Source of the DNA: a virus
Taxonomy: Duplodnaviria; Heunggongvirae; Uroviricota; Caudoviricetes
Direction: 5' to 3' (one strand)
DNA: 64,000 nucleotides
Virus record (IMG/VR): IMGVR_UViG_3300038443_000660
Span: 66,082-130,081 of that record
Notes under the pieces: generated by a model
Database searches by the model: none
Told to the model about the DNA's origin: nothing
Seen by the model: the letters and a program-made list of their open reading frames with translations, nothing else
Program-made: the position numbers and the translations under genes
In this document: piece by piece, positions 1,332 to 40,550 of the stretch
How the letters are laid out: the number at the start of each line of letters is the position of its first letter
Position numbering within the stretch: the stretch's first letter is position 1

Positions 1332-2096
1332 TCACTTTTGCTTCTTTTTTGGAACCGGGCCTTTTCCCTCAATCCATAGTTCCAAATCTTCAACGGTAAA
1401 CCAACCGAAGTTATTGGTATCCTGTTCGTAAGGATTAAGCCAGTAAACTACCGGATACTTGGTGTCAATATCCGAAAATTTCGAAGACCAACGGGGAGAA
1501 CACGCAAAATACTTCTTACCCGCCGCATTCAGCTTATCATGAATTCCGGTCTTTTCCGACTCTGCCTTGAGCCGAATATTATCATCGATATCTTCATCGA
1601 ATTCCTTGATTTTGAATTCGGGAAGCTTATCGAGGTATACGAAATTCAGACCGGACTTTCCAGTCATTTTTGCGCTGATAAGAGGAACGACACGCTTTTT
1701 CATGATGTTGGTGTAAAGTTCCTCGACAACGGCCTTGTACGGTTCCTCGAAGGCCGCAAGAAGAAACCTGTTTTCATCCCAATAGGAAACAAAACCGTTT
1801 CGTGCGAAATAGTTATATTTTGGGCTAAGATTATACTGCTTAATCAAGGACGCTTCGTCATACCCATAGATACTCGTCATGGTTACGGCGGTGAGGGACT
1901 TCTTTTTGATAAATCGAATACTGTCTGTATTGCTGATTACTCGATCAGCGAAATAAGCGTCTTCACTGGCATTTACACCAAGTGAAGATTTCAACCTCTT
2001 GATGCCCCATTCGTGTTCCGATACATGGTCAAATCCCATCGAAAACCCGACTTCCGTAGGACCAACATCAGACAAACCCAACCGCATATCAATCAT
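1332..2096 (-). CDS. hypothetical protein
   Basis: 254 aa minus-strand ORF with no recognised motif; a TTGACA-type promoter lies just upstream (~2139-2144). Confidence 0.5.
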   Translation of the reverse strand: MIDMRLGLSDVGPTEVGFSMGFDHVSEHEWGIKRLKSSLGVNASEDAYFADRVISNTDSIRFIKKKSLTAVTMTSIYGYDEASLIKQYNLSPKYNYFARNGFVSYWDENRFLLAAFEEPYKAVVEELYTNIMKKRVVPLISAKMTGKSGLNFVYLDKLPEFKIKEFDEDIDDNIRLKAESEKTGIHDKLNAAGKKYFACSPRWSSKFSDIDTKYPVVYWLNPYEQDTNNFGWFTVEDLELWIEGKGPVPKKKQK

Positions 2097-2279
2097 CCTC
2101 TATTCAACTAATGTGTTTGTATTTCATAGATAATATATTGTCAAGACCTTTTATATAAAAAAGAGTAGTGGTTATCCACTACTCTTTCTTCATACGCTCT
2201 TGATGCGTCCATCGTTATCCCAATCTCATTGCAAGCGGTCGCCCCATGTATTGAGTGTGCCGAAGATTGAGCGTATTAT

Positions 2280-2480
2280 CTTTCAAAACCGTTTTCTAAT
2301 TCATACAATCTATCTAATTAACCTAAATGTTCTTAGCTAACCGAAACCGTTTACAAACATTTTAATCATCCTACCGTTTTCTAATTCATACAATCTATCT
2401 AATTAAAAACTAAATGTTCTTAGCTAAAGGAAATCATTCACGAACATTTATCTAATTCCTACTTTTCAAACATAATCTAT
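2280..2480. repeat. iteron-like direct repeats (2 full ~55 bp copies plus a partial third)
   Basis: accgttttctaattcatacaatctatctaatta..taaatgttcttagctaa occurs at ~2289-2340 and ~2374-2428; a related tctaattcctac...aatctatcaatctaa lies at ~2450-2478; the region has no long ORF. Confidence 0.6.
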
Positions 2481-2566
2481 CAATCTAACACACTAGAAAG
2501 AGGAACGGGTTACATGACTTTATCTCCTGTCTGTTTCACTCAATCTCAACTCAACCCTACATTTAT

Positions 2567-2595
2567 TAATATAATCGGATTCTATAGAATGTCAA
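2567..2595 (-). promoter_or_regulatory. sigma70-like promoter (TTGACA-N17-ATATTA) firing leftward into the repeat block
   Basis: Minus strand reads TTGACATTCTATAGAATCCGATTATATTA; it belongs to the conserved promoter family. Confidence 0.5.
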
Positions 2596-2605
2596 CACCT
2601 ATTTT

Positions 2606-3214
2606 TCAATAATATATAATTTTTTCGATGATATCCCACAATTCGGCTTCGTCCATTTTCTTGGAGAATGGGCATACATCGGGAGCAACTACAGGCTTGA
2701 TAATTCTGGCGTAATCTTTGATAATTTCGCCTCTTGTCAGATAAGTTATCGTTGGTTCATGGTATTTAATTCTATGGAATGCATCAGCAGACAAAGCATA
2801 TTCAGAACCTTCGGTCAGACTAAAGCTGCACACCATAGAAATATCAACCTCTTTTAGAAAATGCGGAGGCTTGCCTGCATCTTCCATAGAACACGACACT
2901 TCAAATAATCCCAAATCAGTAAATAACATGGAATCATAAACGAAAATTTCATTAGTCAACGAACCTTTTAGAATTCGACTTCTAAAAGTATATCGGTGGT
3001 CGTGAATTTCTTCATCATCCAGAATCGGCATCAACTCTGGATGATAGAAATGAATTCGTTCGTATTTATTCAGCTTCAATTGAATGAAACCAAGGCCAAA
3101 ATAGTGTGGAGTACCAAGAGTTTTTAGATACTCCACATTATTCTTATACAGCTTGTATTCTTGTAGTTCTATTTCCATCGTTATCATTATCCCTTTTTCT
3201 ATGCTTATCGACAA
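2606..3214 (-). CDS. hypothetical protein with His cluster (possible metal-binding / cupin-like)
   Basis: 202 aa; HFYHPELMP...EEIHDHRYTF; the true start is probably an internal Met (~3178-3187) because of a 70-nt overlap with the HNH gene. Confidence 0.45.
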   Translation of the reverse strand: MSISIEKGIMITMEIELQEYKLYKNNVEYLKTLGTPHYFGLGFIQLKLNKYERIHFYHPELMPILDDEEIHDHRYTFRSRILKGSLTNEIFVYDSMLFTDLGLFEVSCSMEDAGKPPHFLKEVDISMVCSFSLTEGSEYALSADAFHRIKYHEPTITYLTRGEIIKDYARIIKPVVAPDVCPFSKKMDEAELWDIIEKIIYY

Positions 3215-3779
3215 TCAGGTTATTGGTTGAGAATGCTGGCAAAAATTGTGCCCAATTAGGGTCATCAATCACCAATGGATATTTTGCCCGAATTTCAATC
3301 ATTTGAAAGAAAGACGGTTCGAAAATTTTCTTTTTCGGTTGCCACTTACCTACAGGCATGGATGCACCTTTCATCCGGTTACATTCCGGGCAGGATGCCA
3401 CCAGATTGGTCCATTCGGTCTTACCGCCTTTTGACAATGGCACAACGTGGTCATCCGTCATGGTGTTGCGTTGATGCTTTTGCTTTGTCAAAGGCATGTC
3501 ACACCAAAAACATCTTGTGTTATCTCTGTAATACAAGGCTTCTTTCGTCAATCTGACTTTGTTGATGAATTTTTTGGCATGTTTGGTCACAACCACAGAT
3601 GGCCAGTACAGGTCACGCCGAGAGGGCGTTAAAATTGGTCTATCATACCAATAAACGACATCAACTTTCCCTGATAGATATCCACAAATAGCGTCCCTTG
3701 CCAACACTGTTGACAATGGAAAAACTGAATGCGGCATAAATGATTGGTCCAGAACCAATGTCCTTAAATTGATTTCCAT
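3144..3779 (-). CDS. HNH endonuclease
   Basis: CFWCDMPL...DHVVPLSKGGKTEWTNLVASCPECNRMKG is a canonical HNH motif. Confidence 0.7.
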   Translation of the reverse strand: MEINLRTLVLDQSFMPHSVFPLSTVLARDAICGYLSGKVDVVYWYDRPILTPSRRDLYWPSVVVTKHAKKFINKVRLTKEALYYRDNTRCFWCDMPLTKQKHQRNTMTDDHVVPLSKGGKTEWTNLVASCPECNRMKGASMPVGKWQPKKKIFEPSFFQMIEIRAKYPLVIDDPNWAQFLPAFSTNNLIVDKHRKRDNDNDGNRTTRIQAV

Positions 3780-3848: not shown

Positions 3849-5717
3849 ATGTCATTTAAGCATTTCATTACCGAAGCCTCTTTTAATTCCAAAGATGTTC
3901 CAGAAGTAATCAAAAAGGTTTCAAATATCGTATCAGATAAGCTTGGCAAGAAGTTGTATCCATACAATCAAACCGGTTATCAGGAATTGATGTCTGGTGG
4001 AAAAACATATCAATGTTATTTATTCTTCATGGACGACTGTAAAGCAGTAAGATTTAACACAATTAATGGAACTTTTGATTCTATTGAAATCTGGAATAAG
4101 TATAAAACGAATGGTATCGATGAACCGAAATCAGATTTCACTATCCGCCTAGATGGAATGAATATTCTAAAGGTTATTGATTCGCTTGTCAACGTGATTA
4201 AGAAGCCACGAGAAGGAACATATCGCATCAACGTAAACGAAGATTCTGACCAAAATAAGCAGATGATTTTTGAATCAAATGCTGCCGAAGAAGCCGCTAG
4301 ACTTGGATTGCAAAATCTTGGTTATGGTCGATATGGTCGTGAGATTGACGGCGAGATGGTTCAAACACATAGAGTTGATAAGTTGCGTGATCGATTGGTC
4401 GATTTTCAACCTACAGCACCAGAATCCAGAAAGAAGCAAGTCAAAGACCCTCATGACTGGCACATGATGGCAATTAAAACATTTGGTGATACCAAAAATC
4501 TTTCAAGATTATCGTGGTCCGATGTTGAAATCATTGCTGCCAAAAATGGCGTCACTATTCCCGGTTGGGTTAGAGCATCCGGTGTAGGCAAGGGGAAGAA
4601 CAAGACATTTTCTTCTGTTCCATCAGCGCATCTTACGCAACCCGCCGAAACCATGCAGCAGGCCGGTGAACATAAAGGCGTTCAATATTTTGCGAAAATA
4701 TCGCCTCGTGATCCTATCACCAATAAATTTACTTCTGTCAAAGATGATGAATACGCTCAACGCTTGACGAAAATGATGGATGCAGCCCTGAATGCCCCGT
4801 CACACGATGTGATTGAAAAAGAAATGGTCGATCCAGATACACTTTTTGGTAGAATGTCTGACCTAATTAAACTTATCGTCAAAGGCGTTTCTCCATCGTT
4901 GTTCATTTATGGTGGTCCCGGTATTGGTAAAACATTCATTGTTAACAAAACATTGAAAGAAGCTGGTTTGAAAAAGAATCAGGATTACTACATCGTTAAG
5001 GGTAAAATCACACCAACAGCCCTTTATCAAACTCTTTATACCCATAGAAATGGTAATACTATGTTGGTGTTTGACGATGCCGACTCCGCATTTAGAACAG
5101 AAGATTCAGCAAATATTTTGAAAGCCGCTCTTGATTCGTATGAAGAAAGAGAAATTTCATATTCATCCGCCAGAACCATTAACGTAGATAAGTGGTCTGA
5201 TGAAAAACGTGAAGCATATGAAGCTAAACTAGATAAGCATTTGTTGTCTATCGGTGATGACGATGACGATGACGATCTTGAAGACGATGACGATTTTGGT
5301 GCCGATGACAATGCGGCCTTTCCCGGCAATGGTCGTGGTATGAATAAAGGTGAAAAAAAGAAAAAGAAAAAAGAAGAAAAGATAACCAAACTTCCTTCAA
5401 AATTCAAATTCGATGGAAAAATCATCTTCATTTCAAACTTGGCTAGGGACCAAGTTGACGACGCTGTTCTTTCTCGTTCATATAAGATTGATATGGAAAT
5501 GACGGCTGAACAACGCTTCAAGCGCATGGAAAGCATTCTGCCGTATGTTGTACCAGAAGTTGAAGATACAGAGTTGAAAAAGCGTGTCATGGAAGCAATC
5601 AAAGTTAACCACAAGCTTGGTAAACTTGACCTTCCATCCATGAGAATGTTTGAATCTGGTATTAAAGTTGCAGCTTCTGGTTTACCTAACTGGAAGGAAC
5701 TATTAGATTATATCTAA
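3849..5717 (+). CDS. AAA+ ATPase with ~300-aa N-terminal domain of unknown function and poly-Asp/poly-Lys linker
   Basis: Walker A GGPGIGKT, Walker B MLVFDDAD and sensor region AVLSRSYKID; DDDDDDDLEDDDD then KKKKKKEEK; one of only two plus-strand genes. Confidence 0.75.
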   Translation: MSFKHFITEASFNSKDVPEVIKKVSNIVSDKLGKKLYPYNQTGYQELMSGGKTYQCYLFFMDDCKAVRFNTINGTFDSIEIWNKYKTNGIDEPKSDFTIRLDGMNILKVIDSLVNVIKKPREGTYRINVNEDSDQNKQMIFESNAAEEAARLGLQNLGYGRYGREIDGEMVQTHRVDKLRDRLVDFQPTAPESRKKQVKDPHDWHMMAIKTFGDTKNLSRLSWSDVEIIAAKNGVTIPGWVRASGVGKGKNKTFSSVPSAHLTQPAETMQQAGEHKGVQYFAKISPRDPITNKFTSVKDDEYAQRLTKMMDAALNAPSHDVIEKEMVDPDTLFGRMSDLIKLIVKGVSPSLFIYGGPGIGKTFIVNKTLKEAGLKKNQDYYIVKGKITPTALYQTLYTHRNGNTMLVFDDADSAFRTEDSANILKAALDSYEEREISYSSARTINVDKWSDEKREAYEAKLDKHLLSIGDDDDDDDLEDDDDFGADDNAAFPGNGRGMNKGEKKKKKKEEKITKLPSKFKFDGKIIFISNLARDQVDDAVLSRSYKIDMEMTAEQRFKRMESILPYVVPEVEDTELKKRVMEAIKVNHKLGKLDLPSMRMFESGIKVAASGLPNWKELLDYI

Positions 5718-7799: not shown

Positions 7800-7827
7800 A
7801 ATACAAAAATGTAGGTGAATGTCAACG
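7800..7827 (-). promoter_or_regulatory. sigma70-like promoter TTGACA-N16-TATTAT (conserved family)
   Basis: Minus strand: TTGACATTCACCTACATTTTTGTATTAT. Confidence 0.6.
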
Positions 7828-10542: not shown

Positions 10543-10570
10543 ATATTATCGAAATCTAGGAGAATGTCAA
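10543..10570 (-). promoter_or_regulatory. sigma70-like promoter TTGACA-N16-TAATAT (conserved family)
   Basis: Minus strand: TTGACATTCTCCTAGATTTCGATAATAT; divergent from the plus-strand gene at 10626. Confidence 0.6.
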
Positions 10571-10625
10571 CTGATAATTTTTAAACCCCCAAGATTCATA
10601 AATATGAGTAAATTAGGGAAATAAC

Positions 10626-11312
10626 ATGAAAACGTCTTTTAAAAAATATCTTCTGGAGTCTGTAGAAGTAGATGAAGAAAAGATTGAAAAGTATTATCAA
10701 AAACTTCTGCCGAAATTACAACAAATAGAACGAACGTTTGAACAAGTTTTACGTTCGTCTTTACCCAAACGGATACAGAAAGTTGATAAGTTTGGTAAAG
10801 CGTATTCAGCACAACCAATAATTATTACAAATATCAAACCGGCAGCTTCTGTAATTTCTAAAGTGAAACGTGGTAAAAAGATTGAACAAATTGGTGATAT
10901 GGTTCGTGGTGCAGTTTTGTTGCCAGATTCAAAATCAGTGGACGAATTTGCCAAAATGTTTGTTCGAAAAAATCAAGGAATAATCGACAAGTTAGATATA
11001 AAAAAATTTGGAGAGGATAAAACATATGGATATTACGGGTCACAACACATCGATTTGGTGATTAGCGGGTTGCGAGTGGAACTTCAAGTTATGACACAAA
11101 AGTTGTGGAAGATGAAACACTACGCACACCAAATTTATACTAAAACCAGAGATTCAGGTGTAACTACTGACAGCGACCGAATTCAATCCAAAAATATCTT
11201 CAAAATTGGAAATAAGCCTAAGTTTGTAAAAGAATGCGAAGTGCCAGATGATATCGATGCGCTCTATGAATTCATGTTAATCGATGACCGTTGGAAGTTA
11301 TATCTGGATTAA
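10626..11312 (+). CDS. RelA/SpoT-family nucleotidyltransferase (small alarmone synthetase-like, toxSAS-like)
   Basis: IGDMVRGAVLL (D-x-G-x-R), YGYYGSQHIDLV (G-Y-x-S-x-H) and LRVELQVMT...HYAHQIYTK (E-x-Q-x-x-T...A-H-x-x-Y-K) match the synthetase-domain signature; isolated plus-strand gene with stop codons convergent and overlapping with the gene at 11309. Confidence 0.5.
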   Translation: MKTSFKKYLLESVEVDEEKIEKYYQKLLPKLQQIERTFEQVLRSSLPKRIQKVDKFGKAYSAQPIIITNIKPAASVISKVKRGKKIEQIGDMVRGAVLLPDSKSVDEFAKMFVRKNQGIIDKLDIKKFGEDKTYGYYGSQHIDLVISGLRVELQVMTQKLWKMKHYAHQIYTKTRDSGVTTDSDRIQSKNIFKIGNKPKFVKECEVPDDIDALYEFMLIDDRWKLYLD

Positions 11313-11695
11313 CTCTTTTTGACGAAATAGAATACACCAGCCCACTCATAAAACATATAATCCGTAAGCTTAAGAGCAAACTTACTTGCGAGTTTATGAT
11401 AAATTCTTCTCTTTTTCTTTGTATTAGCAGAGAAATATAGTATGTATGGGTGATTAGTCGCTAGATACTCCATAATGATGTTCTCGACAATTCGGAACAC
11501 CTTTCTGGCATTCGTAAAATACCTTCTATCTCGCATACCAAACTCAACGAAGTCATCATTCCACTCTGGCACAAATTCGTTTATGTCGGTTCCACCACCG
11601 ATTAGATTAAAAGTGACTCGACCGGAAACACTAATATCCAGTCTGTAGTAAAGCCCACCTATATCAAATTTTCTAACAAACACAATTGCACACAT
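11309..11695 (-). CDS. hypothetical protein
   Basis: 128 aa ORF; very short leader after the promoter; stop overlaps the stop of the plus-strand SAS-like gene. Confidence 0.4.
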   Translation of the reverse strand: MCAIVFVRKFDIGGLYYRLDISVSGRVTFNLIGGGTDINEFVPEWNDDFVEFGMRDRRYFTNARKVFRIVENIIMEYLATNHPYILYFSANTKKKRRIYHKLASKFALKLTDYMFYEWAGVFYFVKKS

Positions 11696-11709: not shown

Positions 11710-11737
11710 ATAATATCAAATTATAGGAGAATGTCAA
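11710..11737 (-). promoter_or_regulatory. sigma70-like promoter TTGACA-N16-TATTAT (conserved family)
   Basis: Minus strand: TTGACATTCTCCTATAATTTGATATTAT. Confidence 0.6.
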
Positions 11738-12489: not shown

Positions 12490-12750
12490 TTAGACCATCC
12501 CTAGCGCCGCTTTATACAAATCCAAAATGGATTCTTCTTCCTGCCGTTCGGCAGCATCCTTCTTACGCATGGAGACAATCTGTCGGATGGCCTTGGTATC
12601 AAAACCAGTGCCCTTCGCCTCGGCATAGACTTCCTTGATGTCCGTGGAAATCGAATCCTTTTCTTCCGTCAACCGTTCAATTCGTTCGATGAATGCTCTT
12701 AGCTGGCCAGCCGCAACCGTCTGTGACGTTTCTGTAATTTCTTCGCTCAA
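12490..12750 (-). CDS. GapR-like DNA-binding protein (DUF2312/UPF0335)
   Basis: [49 protein letters not shown] matches the conserved GapR core. Confidence 0.65.
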
Positions 12751-13286: not shown

Positions 13287-13646
13287 TCAATGAATTTTGT
13301 TTTTATTTGCTGATAGATTCCACATAAATGAATCGAATTTATGATATTCTACTAGTGTCCTTTTGACAGATGTATAGTAATAATAAGAACATTGTCCATT
13401 AGACCATTGTATTCTTATTTTTGAATAATCATGAAATTTTGGTTTTTTCGGTTTCTTTAATGGTTTTCTAAAAATTTTTCTAAAGAAATTCGATACTTTG
13501 AATGTTTGTATACGTCTTATATTACATTCTTTGGAATGGCACCACGGTATAATAACACCGTAGTCTCTAACATGTTCGGCATTGATTTCGAGGGAACTAA
13601 ATTCTCTATCCTCCATTGTATTTTCGAATCGATACATATTAACCAT
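13287..13646 (-). CDS. hypothetical protein
   Basis: 119 aa ORF. Confidence 0.35.
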   Translation of the reverse strand: MVNMYRFENTMEDREFSSLEINAEHVRDYGVIIPWCHSKECNIRRIQTFKVSNFFRKIFRKPLKKPKKPKFHDYSKIRIQWSNGQCSYYYYTSVKRTLVEYHKFDSFMWNLSANKNKIH

Positions 13647-14067
13647 TTGTAAACATCCTCAATTCATTTCTCTTGGCCATCAGTAGTTTTCCAAGATGAT
13701 TGTGACCGACACCATCACAAACGCCCCAAAATTTATCTCCCCATGTGTTCCCCTCTACCAATTCTTCATCGCCCGTCGCTAGTAATTTGTCGGCTAATTC
13801 TCGATCTTCAAATTTGAAATTCAGCCACATGCACATGACCGGAATTTTTATTTTATCCCAATCTTTTCGCATATCGCAAAACTGGCCAAGTATCTTAGCT
13901 TTACCCGGCGTTGGTGCGTTTCTGATTTCTTCCCGTTGGGCTTTGTTTCTGGTCTTACATGCCTGATATCCATGTTCAACGGTAGGATATAATTTACCAC
14001 CAAACACGATTGGTGATTCGTAAAAATTTGATAAGAAGCGATATTCGCCGTGGAAATTGTCAATCAT
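13639..14067 (-). CDS. NADAR-domain protein (YbiA-like N-glycosidase / ADP-ribose processing)
   Basis: FLSNFYESPIVFGGKLYPTVEHGYQACK...GNTWGDKFWGV is the NADAR/DUF1768 signature. Confidence 0.65.
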   Translation of the reverse strand: MIDNFHGEYRFLSNFYESPIVFGGKLYPTVEHGYQACKTRNKAQREEIRNAPTPGKAKILGQFCDMRKDWDKIKIPVMCMWLNFKFEDRELADKLLATGDEELVEGNTWGDKFWGVCDGVGHNHLGKLLMAKRNELRMFTNG

Positions 14068-15088
14068 TTTTTAATTCGTTGATTTCTTTGGCGTTTCCGA
14101 AAAACCAATGGGTAGCGGTTTGAACATGGTTTTCCCTGACATATTTCCCGACATTATTACGAAAATCTCTCCACAAGAAATCCCCCGCTCGTCGGATGAC
14201 AAAGCCTTCCACGTTGGCGGATTTTCCGTTAACTTCTCGGATGATTCTTTCAAGTTCTTTTTCGTCATATTTTCCTCGATACAGAATAGGAACGTGAGTG
14301 ATTCCTAATAGATTGAACCATTCTACAGTTTCATCCCATGGCAGACATCTCAAACCATGCCAAATAGAGAACCCCATGAGATATGACGGTAGATTATCAT
14401 ATTTGATTGAGTGTTTGGCATATAAATTTTCCGCACAAATCCGCCAATCATCCGGCAAGTCATAGGCAAAATTTTGTGCGAAATTTTTTGTCCAATCTCT
14501 GGACCAGTGATTGCGACCATCCACGGAACGAGCATGGATATATCCGTCCGAATAAATTGTGGTATTTTCACCATCCATTTTTTCGGTAATGACAACATCT
14601 TGACCGTGGAAAAAGTCCATGGATTTCATCATGCGGTCATCATCATTCATGCCGGGAGACATAACGACATGATAAGTCCGTGGGTACTTCATTCTGGTAG
14701 TGTATAAATCAAGAACACCACCTTGTTTCAAAATCTTTTGGACAGATTCGTCATCAAACAATTCGCCACGAACACGCTGCCCATTTTCTAAAACAATATC
14801 TCCCCATTTTGTGTAGGAAACATCGGAATAAAAATGTTCTGGCAAAGCAGGTTTCAATATGCCTGCATATTCTCTGATTTGCTCGACAGATATTAATGTT
14901 TGTTCACATTCAATATGATGCTTTTCACAAACGGAAGCGCCGTTTTCGAGATAGTAGCCGCCATCAGAGAACAATCGCCTTTCCAATATATGGTGAGCGT
15001 CAACAGCATCTTCACCACAGACAACGCATTTATGGTTGTCTCTGGCAAACACACCTTCTCTAAAATCGTCTCTGGACAGTAGTTTCAT
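14060..15088 (-). CDS. HNH endonuclease domain fused to RNA-ligase (Rnl-family nucleotidyltransferase) domain
   Basis: N-term HKCVVCGEDAVDAHHILERR...CEKHH (HNH); then EKMDGEN (KxDG motif I), VEGFVIRR (motif IV) and NVGKYVRENH (motif V). Confidence 0.55.
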   Translation of the reverse strand: MKLLSRDDFREGVFARDNHKCVVCGEDAVDAHHILERRLFSDGGYYLENGASVCEKHHIECEQTLISVEQIREYAGILKPALPEHFYSDVSYTKWGDIVLENGQRVRGELFDDESVQKILKQGGVLDLYTTRMKYPRTYHVVMSPGMNDDDRMMKSMDFFHGQDVVITEKMDGENTTIYSDGYIHARSVDGRNHWSRDWTKNFAQNFAYDLPDDWRICAENLYAKHSIKYDNLPSYLMGFSIWHGLRCLPWDETVEWFNLLGITHVPILYRGKYDEKELERIIREVNGKSANVEGFVIRRAGDFLWRDFRNNVGKYVRENHVQTATHWFFGNAKEINELKND

Positions 15089-18460: not shown

Positions 18461-19621
18461 TTACTGGAATTCCGTTAAATTTTTGCCCTTGCGGTTCAAA
18501 TAATCTTCGGAAACGAATTTGAGAATCACTCTGCCTAGTTCATCGTTTCGCTGTTCCCTAATTGGAGTAACAACTACACCCTCACGGATATTTTCACCAT
18601 TTCCAACTACAGTTTCACCATCAACATATTTTGATACTTCCTCTTGCGTATCTACAATGTCAAGAATAGGGACATGTTGAATATCAAGTTGTTTGAAGAA
18701 CTCGTATTTAAGATCGGCATCCATGTAACCGGTAATGTCCATGAAATCAAATGCTCTAAAGGTTGGTGTTTTTTGTGAATAGTGCAAATCTTGAACACCA
18801 ACACCAAATATTTCACCAAACAAGAAGTATGGACTAATTGACACGCCGATTTGTTTGATACTGTCAATAATACCAGTTTCTTTTAGAGTTTTAACATATA
18901 AATTCTTTGCATTGTTTTCATTATCTTTGAAAACTAGCCCAGATGCACCGAAACCCTTGGAAAATACAACAATCGAATTGCCCTTTCCATCAGAAATCAA
19001 ATCAGGATGTTCAAGATTTGGAATGAATCCAATTCCACAGAAAGTTCCATGCAACTTTTCAGTAATGTAGAACGGACCAATATCGTTTGTCAAAACATTT
19101 GGATATTTTTTGACGTTTTCGATGTCGTATTTTGGAATAGACACGTAAGAGCCGATGTATAAAATTTCACCGTCCATATATGCTGGAATTACTGGTTCAT
19201 ACTTGGTAATACCCAAGAACTCTGAAACGTCATCCCCGACTTGTAGGCAATGTGAAGAATCGCCTACAGAATTATAAAGGATGTTCCCGCCCATTTTCTT
19301 GATTACGGGTAGTAGAATACCTTCTGATAGGACGTTCCGAAGACGAATTGGTCTTACTCGATTACCATCGGGTCCACCAAGCATCCCCTTGTTATTTTTT
19401 TCATCCCAGAAGCCATCTTTCAAAATGTAATCTGGAACGATAGAATCAGCCTGTACATAGACAACCCAATCGCCGGGATTATATCTATGTGAACCATCTT
19501 CAAGCTTGCCAGAAACAATTTGATAACTGAAACCTTTAAGTTTGATAATCGATAACCTATCAGCATTCGGATGGTCGATTACATTCTCGACCACCATTAC
19601 TTTTGATTCAAAATTTGCCAT
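18461..19621 (-). CDS. RNA ligase (Rnl family) with N-terminal tRNA-binding OB domain
   Basis: N-term VIDHPNADRLSIIKLKGF...LRNVLSEGIL (CsaA/Trbp111-type tRNA-binding domain); ITEKLHGT (motif I Lys), REGVVVTP (IV), RVILKFVSEDY (V). Confidence 0.6.
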   Translation of the reverse strand: MANFESKVMVVENVIDHPNADRLSIIKLKGFSYQIVSGKLEDGSHRYNPGDWVVYVQADSIVPDYILKDGFWDEKNNKGMLGGPDGNRVRPIRLRNVLSEGILLPVIKKMGGNILYNSVGDSSHCLQVGDDVSEFLGITKYEPVIPAYMDGEILYIGSYVSIPKYDIENVKKYPNVLTNDIGPFYITEKLHGTFCGIGFIPNLEHPDLISDGKGNSIVVFSKGFGASGLVFKDNENNAKNLYVKTLKETGIIDSIKQIGVSISPYFLFGEIFGVGVQDLHYSQKTPTFRAFDFMDITGYMDADLKYEFFKQLDIQHVPILDIVDTQEEVSKYVDGETVVGNGENIREGVVVTPIREQRNDELGRVILKFVSEDYLNRKGKNLTEFQ

Positions 19622-26545: not shown

Positions 26546-26777
26546 AGAAGCGTGTGTTTTTCTGGAATTTCGTAATATTTCATTGAATTATTATATTCCA
26601 ATATCAGCCAACGTTAAAATGGGCGTCGAACCCATGTTTCCAGTTATCCAACCGGTGTCCTATCCACCTAGACGATTTAACTCAATGCAATCTTAGATCG
26701 GCAAATCCATTTCATGCATCGTGGCGACTGAACTATTTAAACATTGCCGTGTAGAAATAGTTCAATTCTGTTGTTGT

Positions 26778-32669: not shown

Positions 32670-32885
32670 CTAATTCGCTCCATAAAAAATTGCTATCATA
32701 ACTGCAATGAACACGCAGATTACAAAGAAACCGATAACCATTTGATTACTAGTTGAAGTTGACGTTGAGGAAATCAACCAATCATCGTCTTTCCAGTCCG
32801 AAAACAAAGGTTTCACTTCTTTTTCGGAAGGTTTCTTGGTGAGAATGTCATCAAGAAATTTGGAAAGTTTATCAAGCATACCCAT
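32670..32885 (-). CDS. small membrane protein
   Basis: 71 aa with a C-terminal TM helix. Confidence 0.35.
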   Translation of the reverse strand: MGMLDKLSKFLDDILTKKPSEKEVKPLFSDWKDDDWLISSTSTSTSNQMVIGFFVICVFIAVMIAIFYGAN

Positions 32886-33999
32886 TTTTTATCTTCTCGT
32901 CAATCCATTTTGTTCTAATTCGTTTCAATTCTTTACCTAATTCTGGTCCCGGTTCAAAACCTTGTTGAATAAGTAACAAAGAACTACCAACCGGCCACGA
33001 ATCCAGATTTGGATAATCGTTAAAAAATTTGTTCCAAGCATCTGAATTTCGCATTACACCGACAGAAGCCAGATATTGCACCCATGCTCGTTTCTCGATG
33101 TTATTCAACGTGTAATCCAGAATATGATAATTGTCGGTTCTGGAATTGTTGAGAACAAAATATTGCTTGACAAAATCTTGTTCAACAGAAGACGCTTTAT
33201 AACGAGATTTCAGTACATGTAAGACATCTTCGTTGAAGTTAAAGAGCGCTATCAACCGCAACAGATAACTTTTATTGCGAAAATCATTGTAATGAAGACA
33301 CGAATGAGGAATATCGATATATGGTCCGATAGACCTTGACATAGCCTGAATGACAGGGAAATTTCCTATTTCCAAAATTTTTGTTAGTTCTGCCCAGATG
33401 CGTTCACCAGAGATAGATTTAAGACCATCGCCAAGCTTTTCGATGATAGCCAAATTGTCTCTAAGAGTCTGGTCATAAACAATAGTTTTCATCTTACCCA
33501 AGAACCTGAAATATCTCAAAATTCTTAAATAATCTTCCCGAATGCGATCTTCTGCATTACCCACAAATTGTAGATGGCATTGCTTCAAATCTCTCTTGCC
33601 ATCAAAATAATCATAAATTTCACCAAATCGGTCCATGAACATAGCATTGATTGTGAAATCACGGCGGGAAGCGTCCAACCTCCAATCATCGGTAAATTCC
33701 ACGACCGCATGGCGACCATCGGTTTCCTTGTCGATTCGTAATGTAGTTACTTCAAACGGAATTTTATCGACAACAATCGTTACCGTACCATGCTTAAGAC
33801 CGGTAGGAATGACTTCTTTATCAAGTCTAGTGAATATCTCGACAATTTGTTCTGGCAATGCCGTAGTAGCAATGTCGATATCATGCGGCTGGATACCGGA
33901 AAGAAAATCACGCACTGCACCACCGGCAATTCTGGCCTGAAAGCCAGAATTTTCAATCGTTTGCATAATCCATTCGGCAATGGGATTCAGAGATTTCAT
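32872..33999 (-). CDS. cca: tRNA nucleotidyltransferase (CCA-adding enzyme)
   Basis: ARIAGGAVRDFL...PHDIDIAT...TLRID...RRDFTINAM are class II CCA-adding head-domain motifs. Confidence 0.75.
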   Translation of the reverse strand: MKSLNPIAEWIMQTIENSGFQARIAGGAVRDFLSGIQPHDIDIATTALPEQIVEIFTRLDKEVIPTGLKHGTVTIVVDKIPFEVTTLRIDKETDGRHAVVEFTDDWRLDASRRDFTINAMFMDRFGEIYDYFDGKRDLKQCHLQFVGNAEDRIREDYLRILRYFRFLGKMKTIVYDQTLRDNLAIIEKLGDGLKSISGERIWAELTKILEIGNFPVIQAMSRSIGPYIDIPHSCLHYNDFRNKSYLLRLIALFNFNEDVLHVLKSRYKASSVEQDFVKQYFVLNNSRTDNYHILDYTLNNIEKRAWVQYLASVGVMRNSDAWNKFFNDYPNLDSWPVGSSLLLIQQGFEPGPELGKELKRIRTKWIDEKIKNGYA

Positions 34000-40052: not shown

Positions 40053-40080
40053 ATAATACGAAAATGTAGACGAATGTCAA
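40053..40080 (-). promoter_or_regulatory. sigma70-like promoter TTGACA-N16-TATTAT (conserved family)
   Basis: Minus strand: TTGACATTCGTCTACATTTTCGTATTAT. Confidence 0.6.
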
Positions 40081-40550
40081 GCGTTTTTATTTTCCAGAGC
40101 ATTTTTAAGAAAATGATAAGTTTTCACATACTTATTCATCCTCTCCAAATCTTTTTCACGAATGCCTTTCAGCCGTCGCAAATCCATGTTGTGGCGAAGA
40201 TCGCACATTTTTACTTTAGTTGCATCATGGTTCGACATCAAATTGGCGATATACGAATCATACGAATCTTCGTCTTTGTGGGTAAGCAATCGAACAGCCG
40301 CAACAACCCTATCGGTCATACCGATGTATTTCAAGGCTTCGAAACCAGCTTCATGATCGTTTGAGTAGGCGTCTTCAACAACATCATGCAGAACGGCGAT
40401 AGCCATCAGTTCTTCATCATCAGTTTTCAGGAAACTCATTACCCGGAGCGGATGCAGAATGTACGGAAGTCCACCACGATCAAACTGTCCGTCATGCTTC
40501 TGTGTCGCAAATGTAATTGCCTTTGAAAGAATGTGTTTATTGTTCATCAC
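40077..40550 (-). CDS. small alarmone hydrolase (HD domain, SpoT/Mesh1-like (p)ppGpp hydrolase)
   Basis: AITFATQKHDGQFDRGGLPYILHPLRVMSFL...AIAVLHDVVEDAYS is the RelA/SpoT HD hydrolase signature; 157 aa, no synthetase domain. Confidence 0.65.
   Translation of the reverse strand: MMNNKHILSKAITFATQKHDGQFDRGGLPYILHPLRVMSFLKTDDEELMAIAVLHDVVEDAYSNDHEAGFEALKYIGMTDRVVAAVRLLTHKDEDSYDSYIANLMSNHDATKVKMCDLRHNMDLRRLKGIREKDLERMNKYVKTYHFLKNALENKNA

Follow-up and report, generated by a model that had tools for sequence, protein, structure and literature searches.

A divergent small alarmone synthetase-like gene, its recurrent partner gene and an Aph1-type hydrolase in a large tRNA-rich phage

The window analysed here is a 64,000-nt stretch of the Caudoviricetes record IMGVR_UViG_3300038443_000660 (positions 66,082 to 130,081). 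One of its few plus-strand genes encodes a protein resembling small alarmone synthetases (SAS), the single-domain enzymes of the RelA/SpoT homologue (RSH) type. This gene runs head-on into a minus-strand gene of unknown function, here called the partner, and a stand-alone HD-domain gene resembling small alarmone hydrolases (SAHs) lies farther along the same stretch (Table 1). We found that the synthetase keeps an intact RSH active site, that the partner recurs beside it across phage lineages and that hydrolases of the same type adjoin it, or are fused to it, in relatives. We envision that the three genes may work as one module.

Direct scans were nearly silent on the synthetase. Against Pfam RelA_SpoT (PF04607) the protein gave nothing even at E<=1 and missed the gathering score, NCBIfam and PADLOC returned zero matches, a single-sequence search of the PDB returned none, and the sole direct family match was PHROG 37685, of unknown function. 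Recognising the gene thus required a family profile and a structure model. A tblastn search with the protein found homologues in cultured phages, among them gp92 of Paraglaciecola virus GD1 (31% identical over 85% of the query), which reaches 32.1 bits against PF04607 (cut-off 27), and a gene of Sinorhizobium phage phiM12 that carries a cd05399 annotation. In fact, 124 of 142 family representatives match PF04607 at E<=1e-3, and family profiles run against PDB sequences hit SAS/Rel synthetase chains only (best E=2.8e-4 to 4.5e-4). The membership in PF04607 anticipated by a preliminary description of the window, made from the sequence alone, is therefore not seen directly; judged by these profiles, it is reached only transitively, via relatives. 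An AlphaFold (AF2) model of the protein (pLDDT 82, pTM 0.75) consists of one domain with terminal helices. All 49 of its Foldseek matches in the PDB at E<=1e-3 are RSH synthetase domains (RelP, RelQ, CapRel, FaRel2, the exported SAS (EAS) and Rel N-terminal domains), headed by RelP/SAS2 and RelQ/SAS1 at E about 4e-6 to 1e-5, and the synthetase fold originally assigned is borne out.

The four segments on which that assignment was built are all present in the translation: IGDMVRGAV (89-97), YGYYGSQHIDLV (134-145), LRVELQVMT (149-157) and HYAHQIYTK (165-173). The first had been labelled DxxGxR, which is the canonical form; it reads D91-M-V-R94-G95, i.e. DxxRG, and a second motif is also a variant (ELQVMT versus EIQIRT). 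The Syn residues fall in register with RelQ and Rel: K71, K79 and R82 align with the basic ATP-binding residues, D91 with the Mg-binding Asp, G135-Y136-x-G138-S-x-H141 with the G-loop and acceptor-stacking segment GY(136)xGSxH(141), E152-x-Q154 with the ExQ that holds the catalytic Glu, and H168-x-x-Y171 with HxxY. Across the 142 representatives K71, K79, D91, G138, H141 and E152 are invariant, and all the listed positions are either invariant or at least 90% conserved. No second Pfam or NCBIfam domain was found in the protein, which is without HD, TGS or ACT, as expected of the SAS architecture. Thus, the gene is a divergent member of the SAS family whose active site is intact and which lies below the reach of the Pfam model.

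A first sign that the facing gene matters came from a Desulfovibrio phage, in which the gene directly downstream of the synthetase homologue resembles the partner (BLASTP 4e-7). We surveyed the open reading frames (ORFs) of 28 related loci, using phmmer and then a partner profile; these loci represent 20 distinct lineages. A partner homologue adjoins the synthetase in 16 of the 20, mostly in the same direction. In L001/L024 (phiM12 and phiN3, both Sinorhizobium phages, where the cultured pair is SmphiM12_365 and SmphiM12_367), L003, L016, L017, L018, L019, L020, L022 and L028 it follows the synthetase downstream, with both genes on one strand. It is upstream with an overlap in L007 and L025, and about 1 kb upstream and divergent in L004. 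Convergent genes with overlapping ends are found in the window, in L005/L013 and L014/L015 and, independently, in the distant L023. Overlaps of 4-11 nt, typical of coupled pairs, occur in L003, L007, L017 and L025. Three informative loci have no partner, and in two of them (L002, L027) an HD gene is adjacent instead. Because the partner accompanies the synthetase in so many lineages, mostly co-directionally and often with overlapping start and stop codons, the tie between the two is primarily protein-protein or operonic, and antisense transcription is at most an extra layer in the window's clade. The toxin/antisense-like layout first read from the convergence was right about the arrangement and the missing terminator, and needs revising where it treats the facing gene as an antisense source alone.

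At the protein level the partner is conserved (profile E reaching 1e-50), and it diverges faster than the synthetase, with 46-48% identity where the synthetases share 65-69%, and 22-25% where they share 35-41%. Its core is GNAT-like and the acetyl-CoA motif is absent. Across the family there are no invariant polar residues and no conserved acetyl-CoA loop; an active GNAT acetyltransferase is for these reasons unlikely, and the lack of invariant polar residues fits a binding protein better than an enzyme. The partner had no sequence match in the PDB and no significant Foldseek match, tblastn with the single sequence against the phage collection returned nothing, and Pfam DUF6934 was matched weakly, below threshold, by 3 of 12 members. 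We regard this protein as a candidate cognate inhibitor or regulator of the synthetase.

The HD gene stands alone about 29 kb from the synthetase and encodes the HPLRV and LHDVVED motifs, as first described. Its best solved relative is the (p)ppApp-specific hydrolase Aph1 (PDB 7smg), which matches over the full length at E=3.8e-28 and aligns end to end (157 aa versus 149 aa), while the hydrolase domains of Rel/SpoT match at about 1e-8. It also matches the HD part of TIGR00691 (5.8e-11) and phrog_990 (9e-53). Pfam HD_4, at 24.5 bits, stays just under its cut-off of 27.2. The catalytic residues H33, H55-D56, E59-D60, D117 and N121 are conserved. Five of the six specificity residues of Aph1 are kept (D24, D116, R119, K133 and Y134, here D24, D123, R126, K140 and Y141), and the sixth, R96, is N103. 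In Aph1, D24 and R119 have been shown experimentally to confer specificity for ppApp (PMC10083569). Thus, the (p)ppGpp hydrolase of the preliminary description gives way to a probable (p)ppApp or adenosine-3'-pyrophosphate hydrolase, as predicted from this signature.

Although remote in the window, HD genes adjoin the synthetase in L002, L022, L023, L027 and L028, and L022, L023 and L028 carry three-gene arrays that include the partner. In phiM12 (KF381361.1, 194258-194698) and phiN3 (KR052482.1, 206254-206685) the linear record ends with an Aph1-like HD gene, some 48 kb away from the synthetase and its partner, mirroring the separation in the window. Moreover, at least 10 of the 142 representatives are fusions, with the HD domain first in P0148, P0054, P0075, P0068, P0127, P0131 and P0091, and the synthetase first in P0154, P0042 and P0146. 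These short metagenomic two-domain proteins are small bifunctional RSH-like proteins that have arisen more than once. The Aph1 specificity residues are present in 6 of 10 fused HD domains, in the adjacent HD proteins of L002 and L022 and in that of the window. Among the same 142 representatives there is no partner-synthetase fusion and no MuF domain.

An exhaustive profile search gave 754 synthetase clusters at E<=1e-3; at E<=1e-30 there are 172. The family was found on viral and metagenomic contigs only, including 16 IMG/VR loci, and tblastn found it in 11 phage records. Two motif-based scans of 185,579 species-representative genomes returned no relatives of the synthetase; these scans are limited by their patterns, and the absence from bacteria is therefore suggestive only.

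Several loci depart from the common layout. On the 166-kb viral contig L022 the synthetase gene (3884-4572) is split into two overlapping ORFs, by a frameshift or a sequencing error, and the downstream partner and HD genes are intact. In Variovorax phage V45v66 (L004, 1358-4080) about 140 aa are added to the C terminus of the synthetase ORF, which is separated from the divergent partner homologue by a J-domain-like ORF (1802-2830, minus strand). L021 (3409-5917) has no partner; the neighbours of its synthetase are a 147-aa ORF, which has two motifs of the H-x-T type (HMTI, HITV) and resembles a 2H phosphoesterase, and a 394-aa ORF that is convergent and contains an HExxH motif. In GD1 an annotated RNA phosphodiesterase lies three genes upstream of the synthetase.

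How might such a module work? Fold, conserved active site, synteny, fusions and hydrolase signature are what we observe; from them we infer the enzymatic activity, the acceptor, the inhibition by the partner and the biological role, which could be host shut-off or the exclusion of rival phages. On balance we lean towards a model in which the synthetase is an active pyrophosphokinase that is restrained by its partner and makes an adenosine 3'-pyrophosphate that the HD hydrolase reverses. The synthetase, a divergent SAS subfamily member by its sequence, would be a catalytically competent RSH pyrophosphokinase. By analogy with toxSAS antitoxins or IapK/Tis1, the partner would bind it and restrain or gate the enzyme. 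Since most of the linked hydrolases bear the adenosine-specificity signature, the product would most likely be (p)ppApp or tRNA pyrophosphorylated at its 3'-CCA end. The Aph1/PbcSpo-type hydrolase, remote here and adjacent or fused in relatives, would undo the reaction; the pyrophosphorylation of tRNA, too, is reversed by SAHs of this type (bioRxiv 10.1101/2021.04.30.441581; PMC11245113). In the window's clade the synthetase gene stands reversed within an array that otherwise runs one way, and it faces the partner gene with its strong promoter and no terminator, so that transcription of the partner would probably also dampen synthetase expression.

Several points weigh against this model. The activity and toxicity of the module, and the binding between its proteins, are predictions from sequence and a structure model, and Pfam, NCBIfam and PADLOC are all blind to the window synthetase. 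We also tried to read the acceptor (G, A or tRNA) from the sequence, and it is not readable: swaps of Syn motifs fail to switch acceptor specificity (PMC12226406), the literature gives no simple determinants (PMC12691689), and makers of (p)ppGpp as well as modifiers of tRNA are found among the closest solved folds, the very top ones being the (p)ppGpp synthetases RelP and RelQ. Both proteins are basic (pI 9.4 for the synthetase), an unusual combination for a toxin-neutraliser pair, and the partner has no detectable similarity to Tis1/IapK or to any toxSAS antitoxin. A minority of linked HD proteins (P0154, L027, L028) have the Arg24 of ppGpp hydrolases. Finally, 253 phage records contain close homologues of the window HD, and 11 contain the synthetase. 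The window HD is 50% identical to the SAH of Salmonella phage PVP-SE1, a PbcSpo subfamily member that, expressed alone, neutralises all tested toxSAS (PMC7229694). Given this precedent and the far wider spread of the HD family, the window HD may act independently, as counter-defence. Thus, the idea of a toxin/antitoxin pair split across the genome gains from the adjacent and fused HD genes of relatives, and loses from these unequal counts.

These points feed an alternative that we find possible and clearly less probable, namely that the gene is a non-toxic, housekeeping-style (p)ppGpp synthetase akin to RelP/RelQ, which triggers a stringent-like response (for example by drawing host RNA polymerase off rRNA promoters), with the partner an accessory regulator or unrelated and the HD protein an independent counter-defence hydrolase against host toxSAS. 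The ranking of RelP/SAS2 and RelQ/SAS1 as top structural matches suggests it, as do the abundance of the HD family in phages that lack the synthetase, PVP-SE1 and its toxSAS-neutralising SAH included (PMC7229694), the Arg24 of some linked HD proteins, and the sigma-70-type promoters that the phage appears to use. However, the PDB ranking is biased by the number of RelP/RelQ chains, and CapRel and FaRel2 score similarly. RelP and RelQ have no conserved two-gene modules (PMC7229694), whereas the window family has one in most lineages, and most linked or fused HD proteins bear the adenosine-specific Aph1 signature.

Just as tentatively, the enzyme could be a tRNA 3'-CCA pyrophosphokinase like FaRel2, CapRel and PhRel that inactivates the tRNAs of the host or of rival phages, while phage tRNAs, the CCA-adding and RNA repair enzymes and the HD protein keep phage translation going. 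The window does encode a rich tRNA machinery, as had been recognised from the start: 19 tRNA genes, all on the minus strand (966-61546), two RNA ligases, a CCA-adding enzyme, HAD_PNKP and Metallophos domains, a 2H phosphoesterase and GatB/YqeY-like proteins. The synthetase is basic, as are the tRNA-binding surfaces of toxSAS (bioRxiv 10.1101/2021.04.30.441581), CapRel and FaRel2 are among its significant fold matches, PbcSpo-type SAHs, to whose PVP-SE1 member the window HD is so close, neutralise tRNA-targeting toxSAS (PMC7229694), and the GNAT-like core of the partner has a counterpart in GNAT toxins, where this fold recognises the acceptor end of tRNA (PMC11245113). But none of the features examined separates tRNA from nucleotide acceptors, the family profile has no sequence match to CapRel or FaRel2 chains, about a third of the synthetase family is acidic, and tRNA-rich large phages are common with or without the synthetase gene. 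We also envision, more speculatively still, a phage-specific three-component weapon: the synthetase would pyrophosphorylate the 3'-CCA ends of host or rival tRNAs or flood the cell with (p)ppApp, a GNAT-fold-derived phrog_24699 protein would gate it, an Aph1-type hydrolase would reset it, and viral translation would be sustained by the tRNAs, the CCA-adding enzyme and the RNA repair enzymes that the phage itself encodes.

The junction of the convergent genes raises the question of control by RNA. The two genes end in overlapping stops, TAA on the plus strand (11310-11312) and TTA, read as TAA, on the minus strand (11309-11311), and have 4 nt in common. No terminator-like site was predicted between or inside the pair, and the RNA folds of four 111-nt junction segments are no stabler than shuffled ones (z -0.68 to +1.63), all of which agrees with the overlapping, terminator-free layout described before. 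A strong promoter lies upstream of the partner, and in the absence of a terminator its transcripts would run antisense through the synthetase gene. Its -35 box is common to the relative L005, in an upstream alignment that is only partly informative. A second strong promoter (10570->10543), which has the same extended -35 motif (TTGACATTCTCCTA) as the first, immediately precedes the next gene of the minus strand, face to face with the weak candidate promoter of the synthetase, which it overlaps. On the minus strand TTGACATTCTCCTA occurs twice exactly and twice with 1-2 mismatches, and there are 5 matches in all versus 0.8 expected; by their sequence these sites probably form a class of phage promoters that host sigma-70 recognises. 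One could therefore imagine that unterminated convergent transcription silences the synthetase by a type I-like mechanism or transcriptional interference, the partner protein being incidental. The overlapping stops without terminator or hairpin, the strong promoter aimed into the synthetase gene, and a convergence kept in the 65-69%-identical relatives (L005/L013, L014/L015) and found again in L023 would all fit. Yet most lineages are co-directional and often translationally coupled, so antisense is neither ancestral nor a general mechanism, and the partner is conserved as a protein; we consider this explanation improbable.

That the gene is a decayed remnant or pseudo-enzyme is very hard to credit, despite its invisibility to PF04607, the non-canonical DxxRG and the split gene of L022, given catalytic positions invariant in the 142 representatives, gene-like codon usage, a confident model and an identical protein on 12 contigs from several samples.

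The module sits in a large phage. The window sequence corresponds to a portion of a 242-kb contig from a JGI metagenome. Megablast of the 4 kb around the synthetase gene against 50,697 phage records gave zero matches, the phage therefore has no close cultured relative, and we do not retain the term virulent first applied to it; a 735-aa ORF has distant matches only, to jumbo and other large phages. ORFs were also scored by codon-usage log-odds, with the long minus-strand ORFs as the training set. The minus-strand median is 0.29, and on the plus strand just 3849-5717 (0.40) and the synthetase (0.25) resemble genes, the remaining 23 ORFs falling between -0.19 and 0.17. The synthetase is indeed one of two plus-strand genes, in agreement with independent gene calling on the parent contig. 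The other may be a STAND-NTPase-type accessory gene, and both opposite-strand genes look conflict-related. GapR is a nucleoid protein of alphaproteobacteria; the GapR-like gene and the relatives among Sinorhizobium phages may be a clue to the host group. The window further encodes an NAD synthase, a NadR-like protein and a NADAR-domain protein overlapping one of the RNA ligases (PADLOC PDC-M42C, 5e-6), and one odd tRNA call (26610-26683) is a 'tRNA-???' with a two-base anticodon.

Table 1. Positions of the module genes, promoter-like sites and neighbouring features in the window
Feature	Position	Strand	Remarks
Small alarmone synthetase-like gene	10626..11312	+	ATG start, 228 aa, single RSH synthetase domain
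Partner gene	11309..11695	-	128 aa, pI 9.5, phrog_24699 (unknown function); convergent, 4-nt overlap with synthetase
Stand-alone HD-domain small alarmone hydrolase, Aph1/PbcSpo type	40077..40550	-	157 aa, GTG start
Sigma-70-like promoter, strong	11710..11737	-	TTGACA-16-TATTAT plus TG, 11/12; directly upstream of partner
Candidate promoter of synthetase, weak and uncertain	10549..10578	+	TCGAAA-18-GATAAT, 9/12; such sites no commoner than in shuffles
TTGACATTCTCCTA-type sites	10557-10570, 11724-11737, 7812-7825, 40067-40080	-	
HNH endonuclease gene	3144-3779	-	adjoins the 622-aa ORF
622-aa ORF	3849-5717	+	weak P-loop matches AAA_16 and nSTAND6; weak PADLOC mad8 match
GapR-like DNA-binding protein	12490-12750	-	Pfam 1.4e-34
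RNA repair/tRNA toolkit	13639-15088, 18461-19621, 32872-33999 and neighbours		

Phage-encoded SAS and SAH genes are already known (PMC7229694), and the phiM12 gene has been annotated as RelA/SpoT since deposition; the bare presence of such genes is therefore not new. What appears to be undescribed is a synthetase-partner module that recurs across lineages and whose partner family, of unknown function, is distinct in fold, the recurrent adjacency or fusion of the synthetase with Aph1-type hydrolases and the apparent restriction of the synthetase family to viral contigs; in the literature searched for the synthetase family, the partner and DUF6934 we found nothing specific. So far, toxic alarmone synthetases have been bacterial or prophage defence toxins, or secreted and MuF-delivered effectors, and phage hydrolases have been counter-defence. 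Our findings set a large, apparently phage-restricted synthetase family and a distinct partner inside big tRNA-rich phages that also carry a hydrolase. If the enzyme is active, phages make pyrophosphorylated nucleotides or tRNAs as well as remove them, which would raise a question about host takeover or phage-phage competition and point to a new class of SAS-associated regulator or immunity protein. The idea is directly testable, because the cultured relatives phiM12 and phiN3 exist.

Among known systems, the Apk2-IapK(Tis1)-Aph1 module of temperate phages, part of MuF polymorphic toxins (PMC10083569, PMC12226406), offers a close parallel. There too, a phage-borne RSH synthetase is accompanied by a small non-enzymatic neighbour and an Aph1-type HD protein, the small protein evolves faster than the enzymes (IapK diverges faster than Aph1; PMC12226406) and the hydrolase is sometimes absent from the immediate locus. 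Unlike Apk2, the window synthetase is a free-standing protein of 228 aa without a MuF or PAAR delivery domain, and its partner has a GNAT-like core in place of any recognisable Tis1/IapK relationship. Its carriers are large phages for which no relative was found in bacterial genomes, whereas Apk2 resides in prophages; the hydrolase is 29 kb away, and (p)ppApp synthesis is here a prediction.

The toxSAS systems (the three-gene FaRel operon, FaRel2, PhRel/Gp29-Gp30, PhRel2 and CapRel; PMC7229694, bioRxiv 10.1101/2021.04.30.441581) are likewise built from a single-domain SAS in a conserved, often overlapping two- or three-gene arrangement, in which an SAH may be one of the genes on the flanks, as in FaRel. 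Some are phage-encoded (PhRel, PhRel2, CapRel), and the fold of the window synthetase matches CapRel and FaRel2 significantly. However, neither its profile, run against the solved CapRel, FaRel2 and Tas1 chains, nor PADLOC assigns the family to one of the five validated subfamilies. The fold of its partner is unrelated to solved antitoxins, gene order and orientation vary and include convergence, and toxicity of its synthetase or neutralisation by its partner would be predictions by analogy.

RelQ/SAS1 and RelP/SAS2 are also single-domain proteins, with the same order of Syn motifs, and give the best structural matches. Yet identity to them is 10-18%, and the window motifs are variant (DxxRG, ELQVMT). 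Moreover, theirs are bacterial chromosomal genes without a conserved partner, whose products are non-toxic makers of (p)ppGpp or pGpp.

Lastly, the HD protein resembles the stand-alone phage SAHs, PbcSpo of PVP-SE1 and PaSpo of SSU5 (PMC7229694), a family widespread in large lytic phages. Those phages have neither synthetase nor partner, and their SAHs are read as counter-defence, whereas in the window, as in phiM12 and phiN3, the hydrolase co-occurs with the synthetase.

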